A stretch of 64,000 nucleotides of DNA from an uncultured Chloroflexia bacterium (lineage in GTDB: Bacteria > Chloroflexota > Dehalococcoidia > UBA2979), in the NCBI GenBank assembly GCA_963728205.1, contig CAVSIV010000001.1, forward strand, positions 608,001 through 672,000. Direction: 5' to 3'. Made by a program: the position numbers and the translations under genes. Below, in pieces: positions 11,805 through 18,575 of this stretch. Every line of letters starts with the position of its first letter. Position 1 is the stretch's first letter. The notes beneath the pieces are model-generated. The model saw nothing but the letters and a program-made list of their open reading frames with translations. It was not told the DNA's origin and did not search any database.

Positions 11805-12551
11805 ATGACCAGCGAAATGACCCACGGCGAGGCGGAGCTGCCGCCCGTTCAGCATCCGCTGCCGCGGATCGGTCCGCGCCAGTACGTCATCATTGGCGTG
11901 ATTCTGACCATCGTGACCAGCATCGAGCTGTGGGTCTCGTACTCACCGCTCGGCGGCCTCAAGATTCCGATCCTGATCCTGCTGTCGGCATTCAAGTTTG
12001 CGGTCGTCGTCGCCTTCTTCATGCACCTGCGCTTCGACGCCCCCGCGCTGACGCGGTTCTTCGTCTTCGGCCTGGCGCTCGCCGGCGTGCTGCTCCTGGC
12101 GCTGATCTCCATCTTCTGGAACGACACGACGGAGCACCGCCCGGCTCCGCAGCCGTACGTGAAGTCCGAGGCGGCCGCACCGGCGGCGTCCGGCGGCGGC
12201 GCGGCCGCCACCGCGGCCACGACCGTCACGGTCACGGAGCGGGAGTTCGCGATCAGCCTCGGTTCCGACAGCGCGCCGGCCGGCACGGTCACGTTCGACA
12301 TCTCGAACGCCGGCTCCGTCGCGCACAACGTCTACGTCATCAAGACCGACCTCGCGCCGGACGCGCTCCCGACAGCCGGCGGCCAGATCGACCAGAGCAA
12401 GGTCGACGTCGTCGCGCATACGGATGGTGACATCGCGGCGGGGCAGTCGGCAAAGGTGAGCGCCAAGCTCGCCGCAGGTTCCTACGTGCTCGTGTGCGAC
12501 GTGCCGGGCCACTACCAGCTCGGGATGCACGTCGCCTTCACCGTGAAGTAG
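11805..12551 (+). CDS. Cytochrome c oxidase subunit IV fused to a C-terminal type-1 blue copper (auracyanin/sulfocyanin-like cupredoxin) domain
   Basis: Three TM helices with KFAVVVAFFMHLRFD (caa3 subunit IV), Ala/Thr linker, then AGTVTFDISNAGSVAHN...YVLVCDVPGHYQLGM (His, Cys-x4-His-x4-Met). Confidence 0.88.
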   Translation: MTSEMTHGEAELPPVQHPLPRIGPRQYVIIGVILTIVTSIELWVSYSPLGGLKIPILILLSAFKFAVVVAFFMHLRFDAPALTRFFVFGLALAGVLLLALISIFWNDTTEHRPAPQPYVKSEAAAPAASGGGAAATAATTVTVTEREFAISLGSDSAPAGTVTFDISNAGSVAHNVYVIKTDLAPDALPTAGGQIDQSKVDVVAHTDGDIAAGQSAKVSAKLAAGSYVLVCDVPGHYQLGMHVAFTVK

Positions 12552-12733: not shown

Positions 12734-13675
12734 CTAGGCCTCGACGGCGCTCCGCGCCTCCGCGCGGCGGCGATCCTCGGCCGCCTCCTGCGCGCGCTGC
12801 GCCTGCTCGGACTTGTGCGCCCAGACGGCGAACGTAACGCCCATCGCCGCGAGATACATCATCCCGCCCGGCACCCACATGATGAGTCCACCCAGCTGCT
12901 GATCGTCCAGCGGCGTGAGCGCGATCGGGCCGATCTCTCGCGCGTATGCGTGGTAGAGCGGGTGGCTGGCCAGGGTCAGCATCGCGCCGAGGAACTGCTG
13001 GGGAACGTTGCCCGCGAAGATGTACAGCACGCGCGGGATGTAGCTCAGCCGCGAGCGCAGCGGCTTCGGGTCGATGACGTTCCACCAGAACAGCCACGCC
13101 ACGCCGGCCATGCTCAGGTGTTCGATATCGTGCAGCACCGGGTGCGTCAGGGCCGCGTCGTACCACCCGGGGGCGAGGTGCCACAGCCAGAGCGTCGCGG
13201 TCATCGCGAAGATGGCCACGGCCGGGTGCGTGACCGTGCGGTAGGCCGCGCGCACGGAGCGCCGGCGCGCCAGCCGCCGGATCACGCCGAGCCGCAGCCA
13301 CCGCGGCATTCCGCGGAGCGACGGCGTCGTCGGCGCACCGAGGAGCAGCGCGGGGACCGCGAGCATCATCAGGATCTCGTGCTGGAGCATGTGAAACGCG
13401 AAGTAATCCTCGGACAGCGAGTCGATCGGCGACTCGAGGGCCAGGATCAGCAGCACGACGCCGAGGAAGAAGAACGCCGTCTGCCACCACGGGTGCTCGC
13501 GGCTGCGCGTCGTCCATCGTCGCAGCCCGCGCACGTAGAACCAGACTGCGAACCCGAGCGGCACGAGGAACTGCGGGTCGAAGCTCCAGCGCGCCCACAT
13601 CGGCGCGTTGGGGTCCACGACGTCGTGGCCCGTCGCGAACGGAAGCAGCAGGTCAGGCGACGGCAGGATGGCCAT
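12734..13675 (-). CDS. ctaG: Cytochrome c oxidase assembly factor, Caa3_CtaG family
   Basis: SPID...FAFHMLQHEIL, LWLWH...YDAAL, HDIEH, DQQLGGLIMWVPG. Confidence 0.9.
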   Translation of the reverse strand: MAILPSPDLLLPFATGHDVVDPNAPMWARWSFDPQFLVPLGFAVWFYVRGLRRWTTRSREHPWWQTAFFFLGVVLLILALESPIDSLSEDYFAFHMLQHEILMMLAVPALLLGAPTTPSLRGMPRWLRLGVIRRLARRRSVRAAYRTVTHPAVAIFAMTATLWLWHLAPGWYDAALTHPVLHDIEHLSMAGVAWLFWWNVIDPKPLRSRLSYIPRVLYIFAGNVPQQFLGAMLTLASHPLYHAYAREIGPIALTPLDDQQLGGLIMWVPGGMMYLAAMGVTFAVWAHKSEQAQRAQEAAEDRRRAEARSAVEA

Positions 13676-13770
13676 GCCGGATCCTTCTCGGGCAGCGGTG
13701 TTCGCGGCGCTCCGTAAAGTGTCTCCCAGATCGGGCTCGGCCGCACGCGCGGCGCGAGGCGCCGCGGGCG

Positions 13771-14175
13771 CTATGCCGGCGCGGCCGGCTCGTCACCGGA
13801 GGCGCTGGGCGGGGGCTCGGCGCCGGCGTCCGGCACGGCCCCCGAGAGGCGCGTCGCGACGGCCGCGCTGAGCGTGTCGACGGCCGTGAGCTGGATCCAC
13901 GTCTCGAACGCCTCGCGGATCGCGGAGTATGCCGCTTCGATCTCCGCCTCGAGCCGCGGGCTCGTCGACGTCGCCTGGCGTGCCCCGGCGATGCGCTCGA
14001 GCAGGGCCTCGAGCCGCGGCGTGAGGTCGTCGTGGAGCTCGTGGAACTCCTCGTCCTCCTCGGCGTGCCCGCGGTCGCGCATGATCTGCAGCGCGCCCAT
14101 CACCCAGGCGATCGTGCCCAGCAGGGTGCCGGTCTCCTCGCGCGTCAGCGCCAGCGGGATGCGGTCGTCGCTCAT
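13771..14175 (-). CDS. Hypothetical alpha-helical protein (134 aa)
   Basis: MSDDRIPLALTREETG...; ATGA overlap with the ROK-like gene stop; protein-like composition. Confidence 0.7.
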   Translation of the reverse strand: MSDDRIPLALTREETGTLLGTIAWVMGALQIMRDRGHAEEDEEFHELHDDLTPRLEALLERIAGARQATSTSPRLEAEIEAAYSAIREAFETWIQLTAVDTLSAAVATRLSGAVPDAGAEPPPSASGDEPAAPA

Positions 14176-14963
14176 GCGTCGCGCTCTCCTTCGTAGGCGA
14201 CCGTCGAGGCGACGCGCACGGCGCCGGTCAGCGCGCCCTCGTCGCCCAGGCGCGCGGCGACGACATGCGGACCGGCCGCCACCTCGTCGAGCACCCGCTG
14301 GAGCAGCGGGATCACGATCTGCGCATGCGCCGGCTCGGCGTCGACCACGATCAGCTCCGGGTCGAGCAGCGCCGCGGCGTCGGCCAGCACGCCGGTCAGC
14401 ACCTGCAGCGCATCGTCGTCCGGCGACGCTCCGGCCGGCAGTTCCGGCACCGCCGGCAGCCCACCCGCGCCGTCGTGCGCGCCGCGAGCCACGCGCCCGC
14501 CCAGGAGCAGAGCGGCCGTGGGGATGCCCCGCAGCGACACGTACAGCGCATCCGTCGCGTCGAGCGCCACGCCGGCCGCCGTCTCCGCGATCAGTGCCGC
14601 ATGGGCGCGGTTCACCGCCGCGACCGGCGCGCCGAGGTGCCTGCGCAGCGCGTCGGCCACCGCGAGGCCGTCCCACTCCGGCTGTCCGCTGGTCGCGAGC
14701 AGGTGCCCCGTCGCGCCGTCGACGTTGCCCGGGCAGGCGACACCGATGCCGAGTGCGGATCGTCGGTGTCCCTCGCGCGCGAAGGCCATCGCGATGCGGC
14801 CGCCGACCTCCCACGCCCACGCCGCCTCGCTGGGGAGAGCCGGCAGCGGCCACTCCTCGCGTGCGATCGACGCGCCGTCGAGGTCGGCGAGCAGCACCCG
14901 CAGCCGGTCGGCGGTGAAATCGACGGCGACCAGCACGGGATCGCCGGGCGGGGGGATGGTCAT
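14172..14963 (-). CDS. ROK-family protein, degenerate (likely catalytically inactive, no HTH)
   Basis: ROK fold cues (LADLDG, GIGVACPGNVD, LLDPELIVV, LGDEGALTGA), but DxGGT, NDAN, GTGxG and GExGH motifs are replaced. Confidence 0.8.
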   Translation of the reverse strand: MTIPPPGDPVLVAVDFTADRLRVLLADLDGASIAREEWPLPALPSEAAWAWEVGGRIAMAFAREGHRRSALGIGVACPGNVDGATGHLLATSGQPEWDGLAVADALRRHLGAPVAAVNRAHAALIAETAAGVALDATDALYVSLRGIPTAALLLGGRVARGAHDGAGGLPAVPELPAGASPDDDALQVLTGVLADAAALLDPELIVVDAEPAHAQIVIPLLQRVLDEVAAGPHVVAARLGDEGALTGAVRVASTVAYEGERDA

Positions 14964-15027
14964 GCGAGCCTCGTTCCGTGGACGGCCGCCCGGGCCGGCG
15001 CGACCCGCGGGGCCGGCGCGGCCGGCC

Positions 15028-16107
15028 TCACTGCCACGCGGCTTCCAGCTTGCGCAGCGCGGCGACCGCTTCGTTCACGTCATGTTGCGTCATCACGGCC
15101 GCAAGCGGGATCGCCAGCAGCTCCCCCGGCAGGCGCTGGGCGACGGGGAAGTGGTCGGCGTCGAGCCGCGGATCGCCGGCGCCCAGCAGCGCGCCGAGCC
15201 GCTCGCTTGCGTGAAGCGGCCGTCCGGCCGCGGGCGTGCAGGCGATGCCCTCCGCGCGGAGAGCATCAATCGTCGCGTCGAGCGTCCGGCGCCAGAGCAG
15301 GCTGCGCAGCCGCACGACATACACCGAGTAGGCGTGGCGGATTGCTCGCCCGTGCGGCATCCCGGCGGCGCCGCGCATCCCGCGGATCCCGAACGTGAGC
15401 TCCCATGCCGCGTGCCGGCGTAGCTCCAGCGCGGCCACCTCGGCGCGCAGCCAGCCGAGCGCGCGTCGCGCCGCCGCCGTGTCCGGCGGCGCGTCCTCGA
15501 CGCCCGCCGCGCCCGCCGTCCACGTGACGGCGGCTGCTGCGGAGGCATCGTCGGCAGCGCCCAGGCGGACGACGCTCACGTCACCCAGCGCGCCGGCCGG
15601 CCGTCCGCGCTCGGACGCGCCGAGCGCGCCCGACGCGTCCTCGACGAGCGGCACTTCGCGAGGGCCGATGAGCCGCCGCAGCTCCGTCACCGCCGCGGGG
15701 TGGCCGAATGGGTGCAGCACGATCACTGCCCGCGTCTCCTCGCCCAGCACGCGGGAGAGCCCGCGCGGCGACAGCGCGGCCGACTCTGCGTCGACCTCCA
15801 CCGGCATCGGGACGAGCCCGGCCGCGGCGATGCTCTCCACCCAGGCGTCGGCGCCGAGGTCGGGGACTGCGACCTCGCGGCCCCGCGCGGGGAGCGCGGC
15901 GAGCACCGCGGCGCGTGCCTCGGCCGGTCCCGCGACGAGCCGCGCCGGCCGCTCCTCGGCGCCGAGGAGCGCCGACAGCTCGCGCACCAGCGCTGCGGCC
16001 GCGTCGCGGTCGTCGGCGGGCGCGGGCTCCGGGTCGGTGGGCCATGGATCGGTGCGAACCGGCGGGCCGCCGTCGATTGCGAGCGGCTGCGGGTGCTCGT
16101 CAGTCAC
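15028..16107 (-). CDS. DegT/DnrJ/EryC1/StrS aminotransferase-fold protein lacking the PLP lysine
   Basis: LAIDGGPPVR, VIVLHPFGHP, VEDASGALGA, HAYSVYVVR; SFxxxK replaced by RLGAAD. Confidence 0.82.
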   Translation of the reverse strand: MTDEHPQPLAIDGGPPVRTDPWPTDPEPAPADDRDAAAALVRELSALLGAEERPARLVAGPAEARAAVLAALPARGREVAVPDLGADAWVESIAAAGLVPMPVEVDAESAALSPRGLSRVLGEETRAVIVLHPFGHPAAVTELRRLIGPREVPLVEDASGALGASERGRPAGALGDVSVVRLGAADDASAAAAVTWTAGAAGVEDAPPDTAAARRALGWLRAEVAALELRRHAAWELTFGIRGMRGAAGMPHGRAIRHAYSVYVVRLRSLLWRRTLDATIDALRAEGIACTPAAGRPLHASERLGALLGAGDPRLDADHFPVAQRLPGELLAIPLAAVMTQHDVNEAVAALRKLEAAWQ

Positions 16108-16216
16108 CCGCGGAATCTACGCGAGCCCACCTGCGCGCGCAAAACGCCCGCCGCGGGAAGTCGAGTACGCGCCGCGTGCTGGACCGGATGGGACGCGGGC
16201 AGCGCGCGCGAAGGCG

Positions 16217-16480
16217 CTAGCTCGCCATCGCCTGACGCGCTTGACCGTCCAGCGCCGGCACCAGCGCTGCGGGCGGGATGGCAAGCACGTCCGAGAGTGC
16301 GAGCAGCGAACGCAGCGGAATGTCGCGCTTGCCGTTTTCATAATTCGACAGCGCCGCCTGCGTAATCCCGGACAGCCATGCCACGTCGGCCTGCGTCTTC
16401 CCCTGGTTCAGGCGGATCTGGCGCAGCCGCACGGCCGTGTCGTCGCGGTCGTAGTACCGGTCGTCGGTCGAGGTTTTCAT
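16217..16480 (-). CDS. XRE-family helix-turn-helix transcriptional regulator
   Basis: RLRQIRLNQGKTQADVAWLSGITQAALSNYENGKRDI; ATG at 16480 (alternative start 16489). Confidence 0.9.
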   Translation of the reverse strand: MKTSTDDRYYDRDDTAVRLRQIRLNQGKTQADVAWLSGITQAALSNYENGKRDIPLRSLLALSDVLAIPPAALVPALDGQARQAMAS

Positions 16481-16715
16481 CGGCCGCAAACCCTCTACCT
16501 CTCGTCAACGTTCGGTTCGTTCTGCCACCGACAGTATCCCGGCTAAACGAGTCATGCAACGGGGGTGATGGGCTCGGCGGGGAAGTGCCGGGTCTGTCGG
16601 CTAGAATCGCACCGGATTCGCGTCCCGCGCGACCCCGATCGCCGGTAGCCGAGATGCCCGGTGTCCATCGCTGCTGTCGGTCGGCGAAGGGGGGCGCGCG
16701 TGGAGAGGAGCGGCG

Positions 16716-17642
16716 GTGAGCGAAGCGATCGACCCGGCTCGCCGGCGCGGCGCCGGCGTCGGGATCATCGGCGCCGGGCGGCTGGGCAGCGCGCTCGCGG
16801 CGGCCCTGCGCGCCGCCGGCTACGACGGCGTGCGCGTCGGCACGCTCGCCGACCGCGACCCCGCGCGGGCCACGCGACTCGCGGGCGCGCTCGCGCTGCC
16901 CCCGCCGCTGGCGCCGGCGGCGCTCGCCGGAGCCTGCGCGCTCGTGTTCCTGTGCGTGCCCGACGGCGCGGTGCGTACGGTGGCGGACGCCTGGCCGGCG
17001 GGGCCGAGCGGCGCGGTCGTCCACTGCAGCGGCGCGCTCGGGCTCGACGTGCTTGCGACGCCGGCGACGCGCGCCGCGGTGGGGACGTTTCATCCCCTGC
17101 AGACGTTCCCCGCCGGCGAGCCGCCCGTGGAGGCGGCGCGACGGTTTGCGGGCGTCGTCTGCGGAGTCGAGGCGTCGAGCGGTGCAGCGGGCGGCGCGCT
17201 CGGCGAGACGCTCGAGGCGATCTCCGCCGACCTCGGTGCCCGCGCGGTGCGCCTCGAGGGCGTCGACCGTGCCGGCTATCACGCCGCGGCGGTGCTCGCG
17301 AGCAACGACGCCGTCGCGCTGATGGCGGCGGCTGCGCGCGCATGGTCGGCGGCGGGCCTCCCCGCGGCCGAGGCCCGGGAGGCGCTCGCGCCGCTCATGC
17401 TTGCCGCCGCCCGGAACATCGCGGCGCTGCCGCTCGAGCGCGCGCTGACCGGCCCGGTCGCGCGCGGCGACGTCGACACCGTCGCGCGCCACCTTGCCGC
17501 GCTCGCGCCCGACCCGGATCTGCGCGAGCTCTACCGGCGCCTCGCGTTCGAGCTGCTCGCGCTCGACCTCGGGCACGACGCGGCCACGGCGGCCGCGTTG
17601 CGCGCCGCGCTCGCCGAGGACGCGCGGCCGCGCGGGACGTGA
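16716..17642 (+). CDS. Rossmann-like plus DUF2520 domain protein (PanG-like oxidoreductase)
   Basis: IIGAGRLG, LCVPD, VHCSGALG, FHPLQTF, YHAAAVLASN, ALTGPVARGD. Confidence 0.9.
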   Translation: MSEAIDPARRRGAGVGIIGAGRLGSALAAALRAAGYDGVRVGTLADRDPARATRLAGALALPPPLAPAALAGACALVFLCVPDGAVRTVADAWPAGPSGAVVHCSGALGLDVLATPATRAAVGTFHPLQTFPAGEPPVEAARRFAGVVCGVEASSGAAGGALGETLEAISADLGARAVRLEGVDRAGYHAAAVLASNDAVALMAAAARAWSAAGLPAAEAREALAPLMLAAARNIAALPLERALTGPVARGDVDTVARHLAALAPDPDLRELYRRLAFELLALDLGHDAATAAALRAALAEDARPRGT

Positions 17643-17738: not shown

Positions 17739-18575
17739 GTGCGCCTCACGCTCGGCGAGGTGGTCATCGACTGCACGCACCACACCGCGGTGATGGGCAT
17801 CCTGAACATCTCCGACGACTCTCCCGTCGAGCACTCGCGCGTGGGCGTCGACCGCGCCGTCGACCGCGCACGTGAGCTTGCTGCACAGGGGGCCGAGATC
17901 ATCGACGTCGGCGCGAACTCGACGCTCACCGGCTCGCGCGATCTCGACGCGCAGGAGGAGATCGAACGGGTGGTGCCGGTCGTCGAGGGAATCGTGGCGG
18001 CGGGGCTGCCCGTGTCGGTCGACACCTGGAAGCCGGCGGTCGCACGCGCGGCGGCACAGGCGGGCGCGCACCTCCTCAACGACGTCAGCGGCTTCACCGA
18101 TCCCGCGATGATCGCGGTAGCCGAGGAGTTCGGCGTGCCGGGCGTCGTCATGCACATGCGCGGCGCGCCGAAGCACCACCGCGAGGTGAGCCAGGAGTAC
18201 ATGGACGTCGCGGCCGAGGTGCGGGGTTTCCTCGTCGACCGCGCGGTGGAGCTGCGGGCGCGCGGCGTGGAGGCGTGGCTCGACCCCGGCTTCGAGTTCG
18301 GGAAGTCGCTCGACGACAACGTGCGGCTCTACGCGGACCTGCCGAACCTCGTCGCCTCGGGCTACCCGGTGCTGATCTCCGCGTCGCGCAAATACTTCCT
18401 CGCGGAGCTGATCGGCCGCGAGCGCAGCCAGCACGTCGAGGGCCTGACCGAGGCGACGACGATCTTCAACGCGCTCGCCGCGCTCGCCGGCGTGCACGTG
18501 GTGCGCGTTCACGACGTGGCCCCGGTCGCGACGGCGATCCGCCTGGTGGACTCGCTGCGAAGGATGACCGCATAG
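17739..18575 (+). CDS. folP: Dihydropteroate synthase-like protein with divergent substrate loops
   Basis: VMGILN, IIDVG, SVDTWK, LNDVSG, VMHMRG, LDPGF, SRK, RVHDV. Confidence 0.88.
   Translation: MRLTLGEVVIDCTHHTAVMGILNISDDSPVEHSRVGVDRAVDRARELAAQGAEIIDVGANSTLTGSRDLDAQEEIERVVPVVEGIVAAGLPVSVDTWKPAVARAAAQAGAHLLNDVSGFTDPAMIAVAEEFGVPGVVMHMRGAPKHHREVSQEYMDVAAEVRGFLVDRAVELRARGVEAWLDPGFEFGKSLDDNVRLYADLPNLVASGYPVLISASRKYFLAELIGRERSQHVEGLTEATTIFNALAALAGVHVVRVHDVAPVATAIRLVDSLRRMTA

Follow-up and report, generated by a model that had tools for sequence, protein, structure and literature searches.

The window analysed here is a 64,000-nucleotide (nt) stretch from the genome of an uncultured Chloroflexia bacterium; that genome is called G000, loci are numbered with L and genomes with G. 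On the minus strand of the window, at 13771-16489, lie four co-directional open reading frames (ORFs). Two of them encode proteins built on classic sugar-metabolism folds, here called the ROK-like and the DegT-like protein, from which the defining catalytic motifs are missing. Their companions are a small helical protein and an XRE-type helix-turn-helix (HTH) protein. The run is laid out as follows:

16217-16489, minus strand: XRE-type HTH protein, 90 amino acids (aa) from a TTG start, or 87 aa from an ATG at 16480
15028-16107, minus strand: DegT-fold protein, 359 aa, GTG start, PF01041 at 81.3 bits
14172-14963, minus strand: ROK-fold protein, 263 aa, PF00480 at 43.9 bits
13771-14175, minus strand: helical protein, 134 aa, three helices, no Pfam family above cut-off
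14175-14172, minus strand: ATGA stop/start overlap, joining the TGA of the ROK-like gene to the ATG of the helical-protein gene, read directly in the sequence

The ROK-like protein has kept the fold of its family. It is matched by PF00480 with an expectation value (E) of 2.8e-11, its 43.9 bits exceeding the gathering cut-off of 22.9, and its AlphaFold 2 (AF2) model reaches a predicted local distance difference test (pLDDT) of 93.8 and a predicted template-modelling score (pTM) of 0.91. The top 50 Foldseek matches to this model are all ROK kinases or repressors, with query TM-scores (TMq) of 0.69-0.79, including 1z05 (E 2.9e-16, TMq 0.78), 2yhy, 2aa4, 5f7r and, at rank 42, MecR2 (4ija; TMq 0.75); matches in the ESM Atlas are likewise ROK clusters only. 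The protein still has the PGxVD loop, the "GE" helix end and the C-terminal helix. A different picture emerges for the functional motifs when the protein is aligned to two canonical ROK paralogues from its own genome. In particular, the phosphate-1 motif DxGGT (DLGGT in the paralogues) reads DFTAD, the phosphate-2 motif GTGIGGG reads RGIPTAA, the adenosine loop (GGG in the paralogues) reads DAE, the catalytic N-D-A-x reads NRAH and the sugar-binding GExGH reads GGLPA, while about 65 residues that include the Cys zinc motif are deleted; no HTH family is matched in the protein by the Pfam scan. Within the family the phosphate-1 Asp column varies among D, E, N and Q, and the former catalytic-Asp column among R, K, H and E. 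Thus, because all three nucleotide loops, the catalytic Asp, the ExGH and the zinc segment are gone, this well-folded two-domain ROK/ASKHA protein cannot be a kinase. Sugar sensing, one of the roles put forward in the original prediction for this DNA, is doubtful as well, since the sugar-contacting N-D and ExGH are replaced by residues that are not even conserved within the family. What the family does conserve lies elsewhere: W51, G54, G55, G79, G86, P113, A252 and E258 are invariant, residues such as F16, W49, E52, R107, H109, E127 and Y141 are at least 90% conserved, and a family-specific WxWE(V/I)GG motif stands at the start of helix 1. A 5.8-billion set holds 161 clusters of the protein at E <= 1e-25; fused or longer forms are absent from 8000 scored candidates, which is weak evidence.

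The DegT-like protein has lost its cofactor site in a comparable manner. It is matched by PF01041 (E 1e-22, 81.3 bits, gathering cut-off 19.8), the best stretch being confined to residues 62-179 (profile positions 49-167 of 360), which correspond to the large-domain core; the best match by sequence in the PDB, 5k8b (E 6.2e-15), covers residues 57-180. It scores far below every NCBIfam equivalog cut-off, by about an order of magnitude (for example 54.1 against 650 bits). The active-site columns were read in 23 members, namely the window protein and those of 22 loci, aligned with the two canonical DegT paralogues of the window's genome and four database aminotransferases. Not one member has a lysine in the Schiff-base column (SFxxxK): His is found in 13, Asp in 5, the window protein among them, Gly in 2, Leu in 2 and Ile in 1, and the single lysine of the window protein stands near its C-terminus (...ALRKLE). 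The G-x-N-x-R loop (G-Y-N-Y-R) is deleted in all 23 members, and the SGT phosphate loop and the T-F stacking pair are replaced in all 23. Of the former site, only the pyridine-N Asp of E-D-A is retained (D in 20/23, E in 3/23); elsewhere, the C-terminal H-x-Y-x-x-Y-V strand is kept. Six residues that canonical members lack, H136, R231, W235, H252, R268 and W272, are near-invariant in the family.

The original prediction thus reads the two proteins well. Its four full-length ORFs, its account of a DegT fold with neither Schiff-base lysine nor GxNxR and with one lysine near the C-terminus, its list of ROK substitutions (DFTAD, NRAH, RGIPT, GGLPA) with the zinc motif and HTH missing, and the ATGA overlap are all borne out by the ORF calls, alignments and Pfam scan. 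The profile alignments that it suggested place both folds above their cut-offs with the catalytic residues lost.

The helical protein stands apart from characterised families. No Pfam family reaches its cut-off, the best being CHAD (PF05235) at 21.5 bits against 25.6. The AF2 model (pLDDT 86.8) is a three-helix bundle, with helices at residues 12-38, 42-69 and 73-112, followed by a disordered acidic tail. Foldseek against the PDB returns nothing at E <= 0.001, the VIA wide fold search gives only generic helical hairpins (best Z 7.6), and the ESM Atlas search yields no usable match. Among 1.84 billion proteins its profile finds 20 representatives, 7 of them at E <= 1e-30. One protein of 5212 aa, P0031, matches profile positions 57-98 in 10 separate stretches (E 5.5e-12); it is perhaps built from repeats of a similar pair of helices, unless composition alone produces the matches. 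A complex prediction of the ROK-like with the helical protein scored 0.01 (mark 0.32), a value that weighs neither way.

Both altered enzymes are maintained by selection. No internal stop is present in any of the DegT-like or ROK-like matches listed from the genomes of the window's order. For the close pair L022/L024, the ratios of nonsynonymous to synonymous substitution (dN/dS, NG86 method) are 0.127 for the DegT-like gene and 0.078 for the ROK-like gene, against 0.193 for folP and 0.154 for ctaG; for L026/L033 they are 0.254, 0.219 and, for the helical-protein gene, 0.194, with folP at 0.204 and ctaG at 0.292. Only close pairs are informative here, as NG86 dS plateaus at about 0.6-0.8 in the high-GC lineage and distant-pair medians near 0.5 are not meaningful. 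The two genes are therefore under purifying selection comparable to that on folP and ctaG, and are not decaying, given that frames are intact, that close-pair dN/dS is 0.08-0.25 and that conservation extends over 15 to 21 genera. Decay had been named from the start as an outcome that would undo the prediction, and the widespread orthologues speak clearly in the opposite direction. The same data bear on the most conventional view, that the pair are either a working aminotransferase and sugar kinase of the usual sort or decaying pseudogenes. Both proteins do pass the Pfam gathering scores, and public names such as "ROK family protein [Dehalococcoidia bacterium]", "glucokinase" and "predicted NBD/HSP70 family sugar kinase" are attached to the ROK-like clusters; yet each defining catalytic motif is missing, and the intact frames leave little room for decay, so that we regard either version as hardly credible.

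The distribution of the genes identifies the ROK-like protein as the core of the locus. Counts were made in 99 genomes of the window's order, which comprises one GTDB family; 48 of the genomes are of good quality and 21 genera are represented. The ROK-like gene is single-copy and near-universal in this one order of Dehalococcoidia-class Chloroflexota, being present in 93 of the 99 genomes, in 48/48 good ones and in 21/21 genera. The helical protein, always encoded directly after it, is found in 79/99 genomes (45/48 good, 18/21 genera), and the DegT-like protein in 54/99 (20/48 good, 15/21 genera). In a sample of 401 genomes of the class, the ROK-like profile recovers all 26 family members (the window's genome and 25 others) at E <= 5.1e-88, whereas 40 other genomes give E 1.2e-21 or weaker, in the N-terminal half only and in frames of about 320-400 aa. 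One of these 40 rows is the unpublished G688, on which nothing rests. Within this sample, the weaker matches outside the order are ordinary ROK kinases only. A DegT-like search of 401 genomes across the phylum reached E <= 1e-20 in a single genome, the window's own.

Gene order tells a similar story. All 20 fetched loci that hold a DegT-like gene have the ROK-like gene immediately after it and, in 17 of them, the helical-protein gene next; 19 have folP on the opposite flank. Twelve further loci were picked around the ROK-like gene. Eight of these, from genera g235, g236, g227 and g224, have no DegT-like gene and keep the helical protein, and in them folP or the DUF2520 gene is the immediate, divergently oriented neighbour of the ROK-like gene. 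The other four belong to small low-GC genomes (32-45% G+C), where the ROK-like gene is kept, the DegT-like gene is present in two and a helical-protein ORF is absent from all; L046 has nothing but the ROK-like gene between nadE and folP. Indeed, the ROK-like gene persists in 1.1-Mb genomes without any real ROK kinase. The GTDB family as a whole spans from about 1.1 Mb with 32% G+C to about 4 Mb with more than 70% G+C, with the gene order around folP kept; G+C at individual loci is 0.32-0.34 in L046 and L047, 0.38 in L037 and 0.44-0.45 in L048 and L049. By our own start-codon calls, the gaps between the genes are at most 89 nt across loci, the ROK-like and helical-protein genes overlap by 4 or 14 nt in 16 of 25 other loci, and 9 of 22 loci show an overlap of the DegT-like with the ROK-like gene, which is 4 nt long in 8 of the 22. 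Mapped on a tree of the ROK-like protein, whose long branches and arbitrary root limit such counts, DegT-like presence is explained by 2 changes and helical-protein presence by 4; well-supported branches force at least 3 of the latter. The helical protein has thus disappeared on three or more occasions, always in reduced low-GC genomes.

The locus, then, is no fixed unit of four genes but a ROK-like core plus optional neighbours. The synteny that the prediction expected does recur as adjacency of the ROK-like, helical and DegT-like genes, although the trio is incomplete in many genomes. Similarly, its retained pseudoenzyme module stands as far as the retained, non-canonical proteins are concerned and fails as a module, with unequal occurrence (93, 79 and 54 of 99) and the XRE gene in only 4 of 32 loci.

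The XRE protein itself is a clear HTH_3 member (PF01381, E 2e-13, 50.6 bits, cut-off 23). Its gene lies 5' of the DegT-like gene in 4 of the 20 DegT-holding loci and in none of the 12 further ones. As for a promoter, the TAGATT hexamer proposed as a -10 box is indeed present at 16119-16114, 6 nt 5' of the GTG start of the DegT-like gene, but the promoter scan returned 0 sigma-70-like sites in 13500-16900, and the box is an unsupported candidate. G+C in the region is 70-80% (0.74-0.80 over window positions 13500-16500). The intergenic spacer downstream of the DegT-like gene and the genes on the other strand are:

14964-15027, minus strand: spacer between the DegT-like and ROK-like genes, 64 nt, G+C-rich, partly palindromic
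16716-17642, plus strand: Rossmann/DUF2520 gene, divergent from the four-ORF run
17739-18575, plus strand: folP, divergent from the four-ORF run

Within this spacer, GGAACGAGG lies immediately 5' of the ROK-like ATG.

On the 3' side of the helical-protein gene come ctaG, which encodes the caa3 assembly factor, and genes for cytochrome oxidase. In most related loci one gene sits between the helical-protein gene and ctaG; in L046 (4080-4874) it is an NAD synthase by Pfam, and in L023 (7398-9188) a 596-aa ORF looks like a putative glutamine-dependent NAD synthase. In the window only about 95 nt (13675-13771) separate the helical-protein gene from ctaG, so that nadE is elsewhere or lost at this locus. 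Further along, at 11805-12551 on the plus strand, the cytochrome oxidase subunit IV gene encodes a fusion protein, in which COX4_pro (residues 28-97) is followed C-terminally by a SoxE/sulfocyanin-like cupredoxin domain (residues 158-247).

The ROK-like gene adjoins folP or the DUF2520 gene in every locus examined, and this constant company led to a check for a missing pathway step, with the ROK-like protein as a non-orthologous FolK, FolB, PanK or TsaB. HPPK, type III PanK, TsaD and TsaB are all present in the window's genome, and a replacement of FolK, PanK or TsaB is accordingly rejected. FolB (PF02152) is found in 1 of the 99 genomes only. The gap is explained by a PTPS protein of 161 aa (G000:C1:1132358-1132837; L068:1477-1962, minus strand) that carries EPLHGH and no Cys, ExxHGH being the PTPS-III signature according to an excerpt of PMC5041015. 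Orthologues of this protein occur in 89/99 genomes and in 47/48 good ones, and the whole order seems to use a FolB bypass for folate synthesis. A PTPS-III-type protein thus covers the folate step, and the ROK-like protein is rejected as the FolB replacement too. The adjacency itself says little, because the neighbourhood of cox genes, nadE, folP and DUF2520 is kept as a whole across the family; the position of the ROK-like gene, with the cytochrome oxidase/nadE block on one side and folP/DUF2520 on the other, reflects ancestral synteny and proves no link. A missing-step role is therefore very improbable.

Another role named in the original prediction, that of a regulatory partner of active paralogues, would make the two proteins pseudo-subunits that heterodimerise with the DegT and ROK enzymes of the same cell. 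ROK enzymes are dimeric. DegT relatives are dimeric as well, according to excerpts of PMC8987622. The window's genome does offer such partners, since it holds two canonical DegT genes and three canonical ROK loci, next to which the pseudo-forms are extra copies. This does not extend to the streamlined genomes: in three of five tested (G406, G407 and G456; completeness 83, 88 and 94%), no second PF00480 match was found. As the ROK-like protein is the only PF00480 match there, partnering an active ROK kinase is not its conserved role; moreover, it is universal in the order while paralogue content is variable. We consider heterodimerisation quite improbable. Concerning the canonical genes themselves, one of the ROK loci, about 7 kb past the window end (G000:C1:679154-680081), is spread over different open frames, whose two PF00480 matches (profile 2-124 and 122-290) overlap, and is possibly frameshifted.

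All in all, the reading that we hold to be probable, if only just, is that of a non-catalytic ROK-fold core that acts by binding and has two optional, co-translated partners. The ROK-like protein would work through binding rather than catalysis, and the candidates for its family-specific surface are W49-x-W51-E52-x-G54-G55, where helix 1 begins, R107/H109 and the C-terminal AYE. Co-translated with it in stoichiometric amounts, the helical protein and the dead DegT-fold protein would serve as its accessory partners; the DegT-like protein has its own invariant Arg/His/Trp cluster (H136, R231, W235, H252, R268, W272). In the window's clade, the XRE repressor would have been placed in front of these genes and probably autoregulates the operon. 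A bolder form of this account, put forward tentatively as a possibility, makes the ROK-like protein an indispensable, order-specific, non-enzymatic hub, which would have acquired a new surface for binding (WxWE[VI]GG) and would recruit the cofactor-less DegT-fold protein and the acidic-tailed three-helix adaptor, both lineage-specific, into an undescribed housekeeping pseudoenzyme complex.

Several points weigh against a binding role with accessory partners. Both the binding mode and the physical association of the partners are things that we infer. In the smallest genomes the ROK-like gene is monocistronic, so that the partners are not needed for its core role. Since dS is saturated beyond the closest pairs, the selection argument rests on few pairs. 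Finally, the conserved polar residues of the ROK-like protein (E52, R107, H109, E127, Y141, E258) could form a new catalytic site, and the same holds for H136, H252 and R268 of the DegT-like protein (at least 90% conserved).

This last point leads to the main rival, in which the two proteins are neo-functionalised enzymes that catalyse a lineage-specific reaction pair through new active sites or through cofactor-independent or pyridoxamine 5'-phosphate (PMP)-type chemistry. The family-specific invariant His, Arg, Trp, Glu and Tyr residues would suit it, and so would the pyridine-N Asp retained in 20 of 23 DegT-like proteins. The His that occupies the Lys column in 13/23 recalls PMP-dependent dehydratases: in excerpts of PMC8987622, a Lys-to-His change at this position defines the NDP-sugar 3-dehydratases E1, ColD and SpnQ, which are PMP-dependent relatives of DegT. 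The description of the DegT-like protein as dead is thus right about the absent lysine and incomplete about this His, which a reading of the window could not reveal. However, the family does not conserve this His, which gives way to D (as in the window), G, L or I in 10/23, and the SGT and TF contacts and the NxR loop are gone in 23/23. On the other side of the presumed pair, the ROK-like protein is without any nucleotide-binding glycine loop, and the co-occurrence of the two proteins is not strict (54 against 93 of 99). New enzymatic activity is, in our view, unlikely.

Compared with described systems, the closest known kinds are, on the one side, the ROK repressors and MecR2 and, on the other, the DegT aminotransferases and their His-type dehydratase relatives. 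The ROK family (GlcK, NanK and NagK; Mlc, NagC, Lmo0178 and MecR2) shares the two-domain ASKHA/ROK fold with the ROK-like protein, which at 263 aa is shorter than the other members (about 300-400). It differs from the sugar kinases in having lost the three nucleotide loops, the N-D and the ExGH and in having gained WxWE(V/I)GG, and it differs from repressors of the Mlc/NagC type in having neither an N-terminal HTH nor the Cys zinc motif, the two features of membership in that group. ROK repressors and MecR2, which is an anti-repressor, are ROK folds that act by binding and not by phosphorylation; they retain a DNA-binding domain, and in most cases the zinc site too. The DegT/DnrJ/EryC1/StrS aminotransferases (KdnA 5k8b, QdtB 3frk) share the fold-type I large-domain core with the DegT-like protein, which lacks their Schiff-base Lys, SGT, TF and NxR loop and keeps the E-D-A Asp. 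With E1, ColD and SpnQ it has the His in common in 13/23 members, whereas Asp fills this column in the window protein and the cofactor contacts have been lost. A literature look-up confined to ROK-family pseudokinases found no prior description of the ROK-like family.

To our knowledge, few bacterial pseudoenzymes are well documented. At this locus, two classic folds of sugar metabolism are stripped of their catalytic residues and are yet conserved like folP, the ROK-like protein across a whole order and through extreme genome reduction. The finding also matters in practice. In public records the ROK-like protein is listed as a glucokinase or sugar kinase and its DegT-like partner as a sugar transaminase, although the corresponding motifs are lost, and hexokinase or amino-sugar steps inferred from these genes in metabolic reconstructions would thus be wrong. 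Should the ROK-like protein indeed be the hub of a pseudoenzyme complex, the locus would offer a tractable three-protein system for studying the re-use of dead enzymes.

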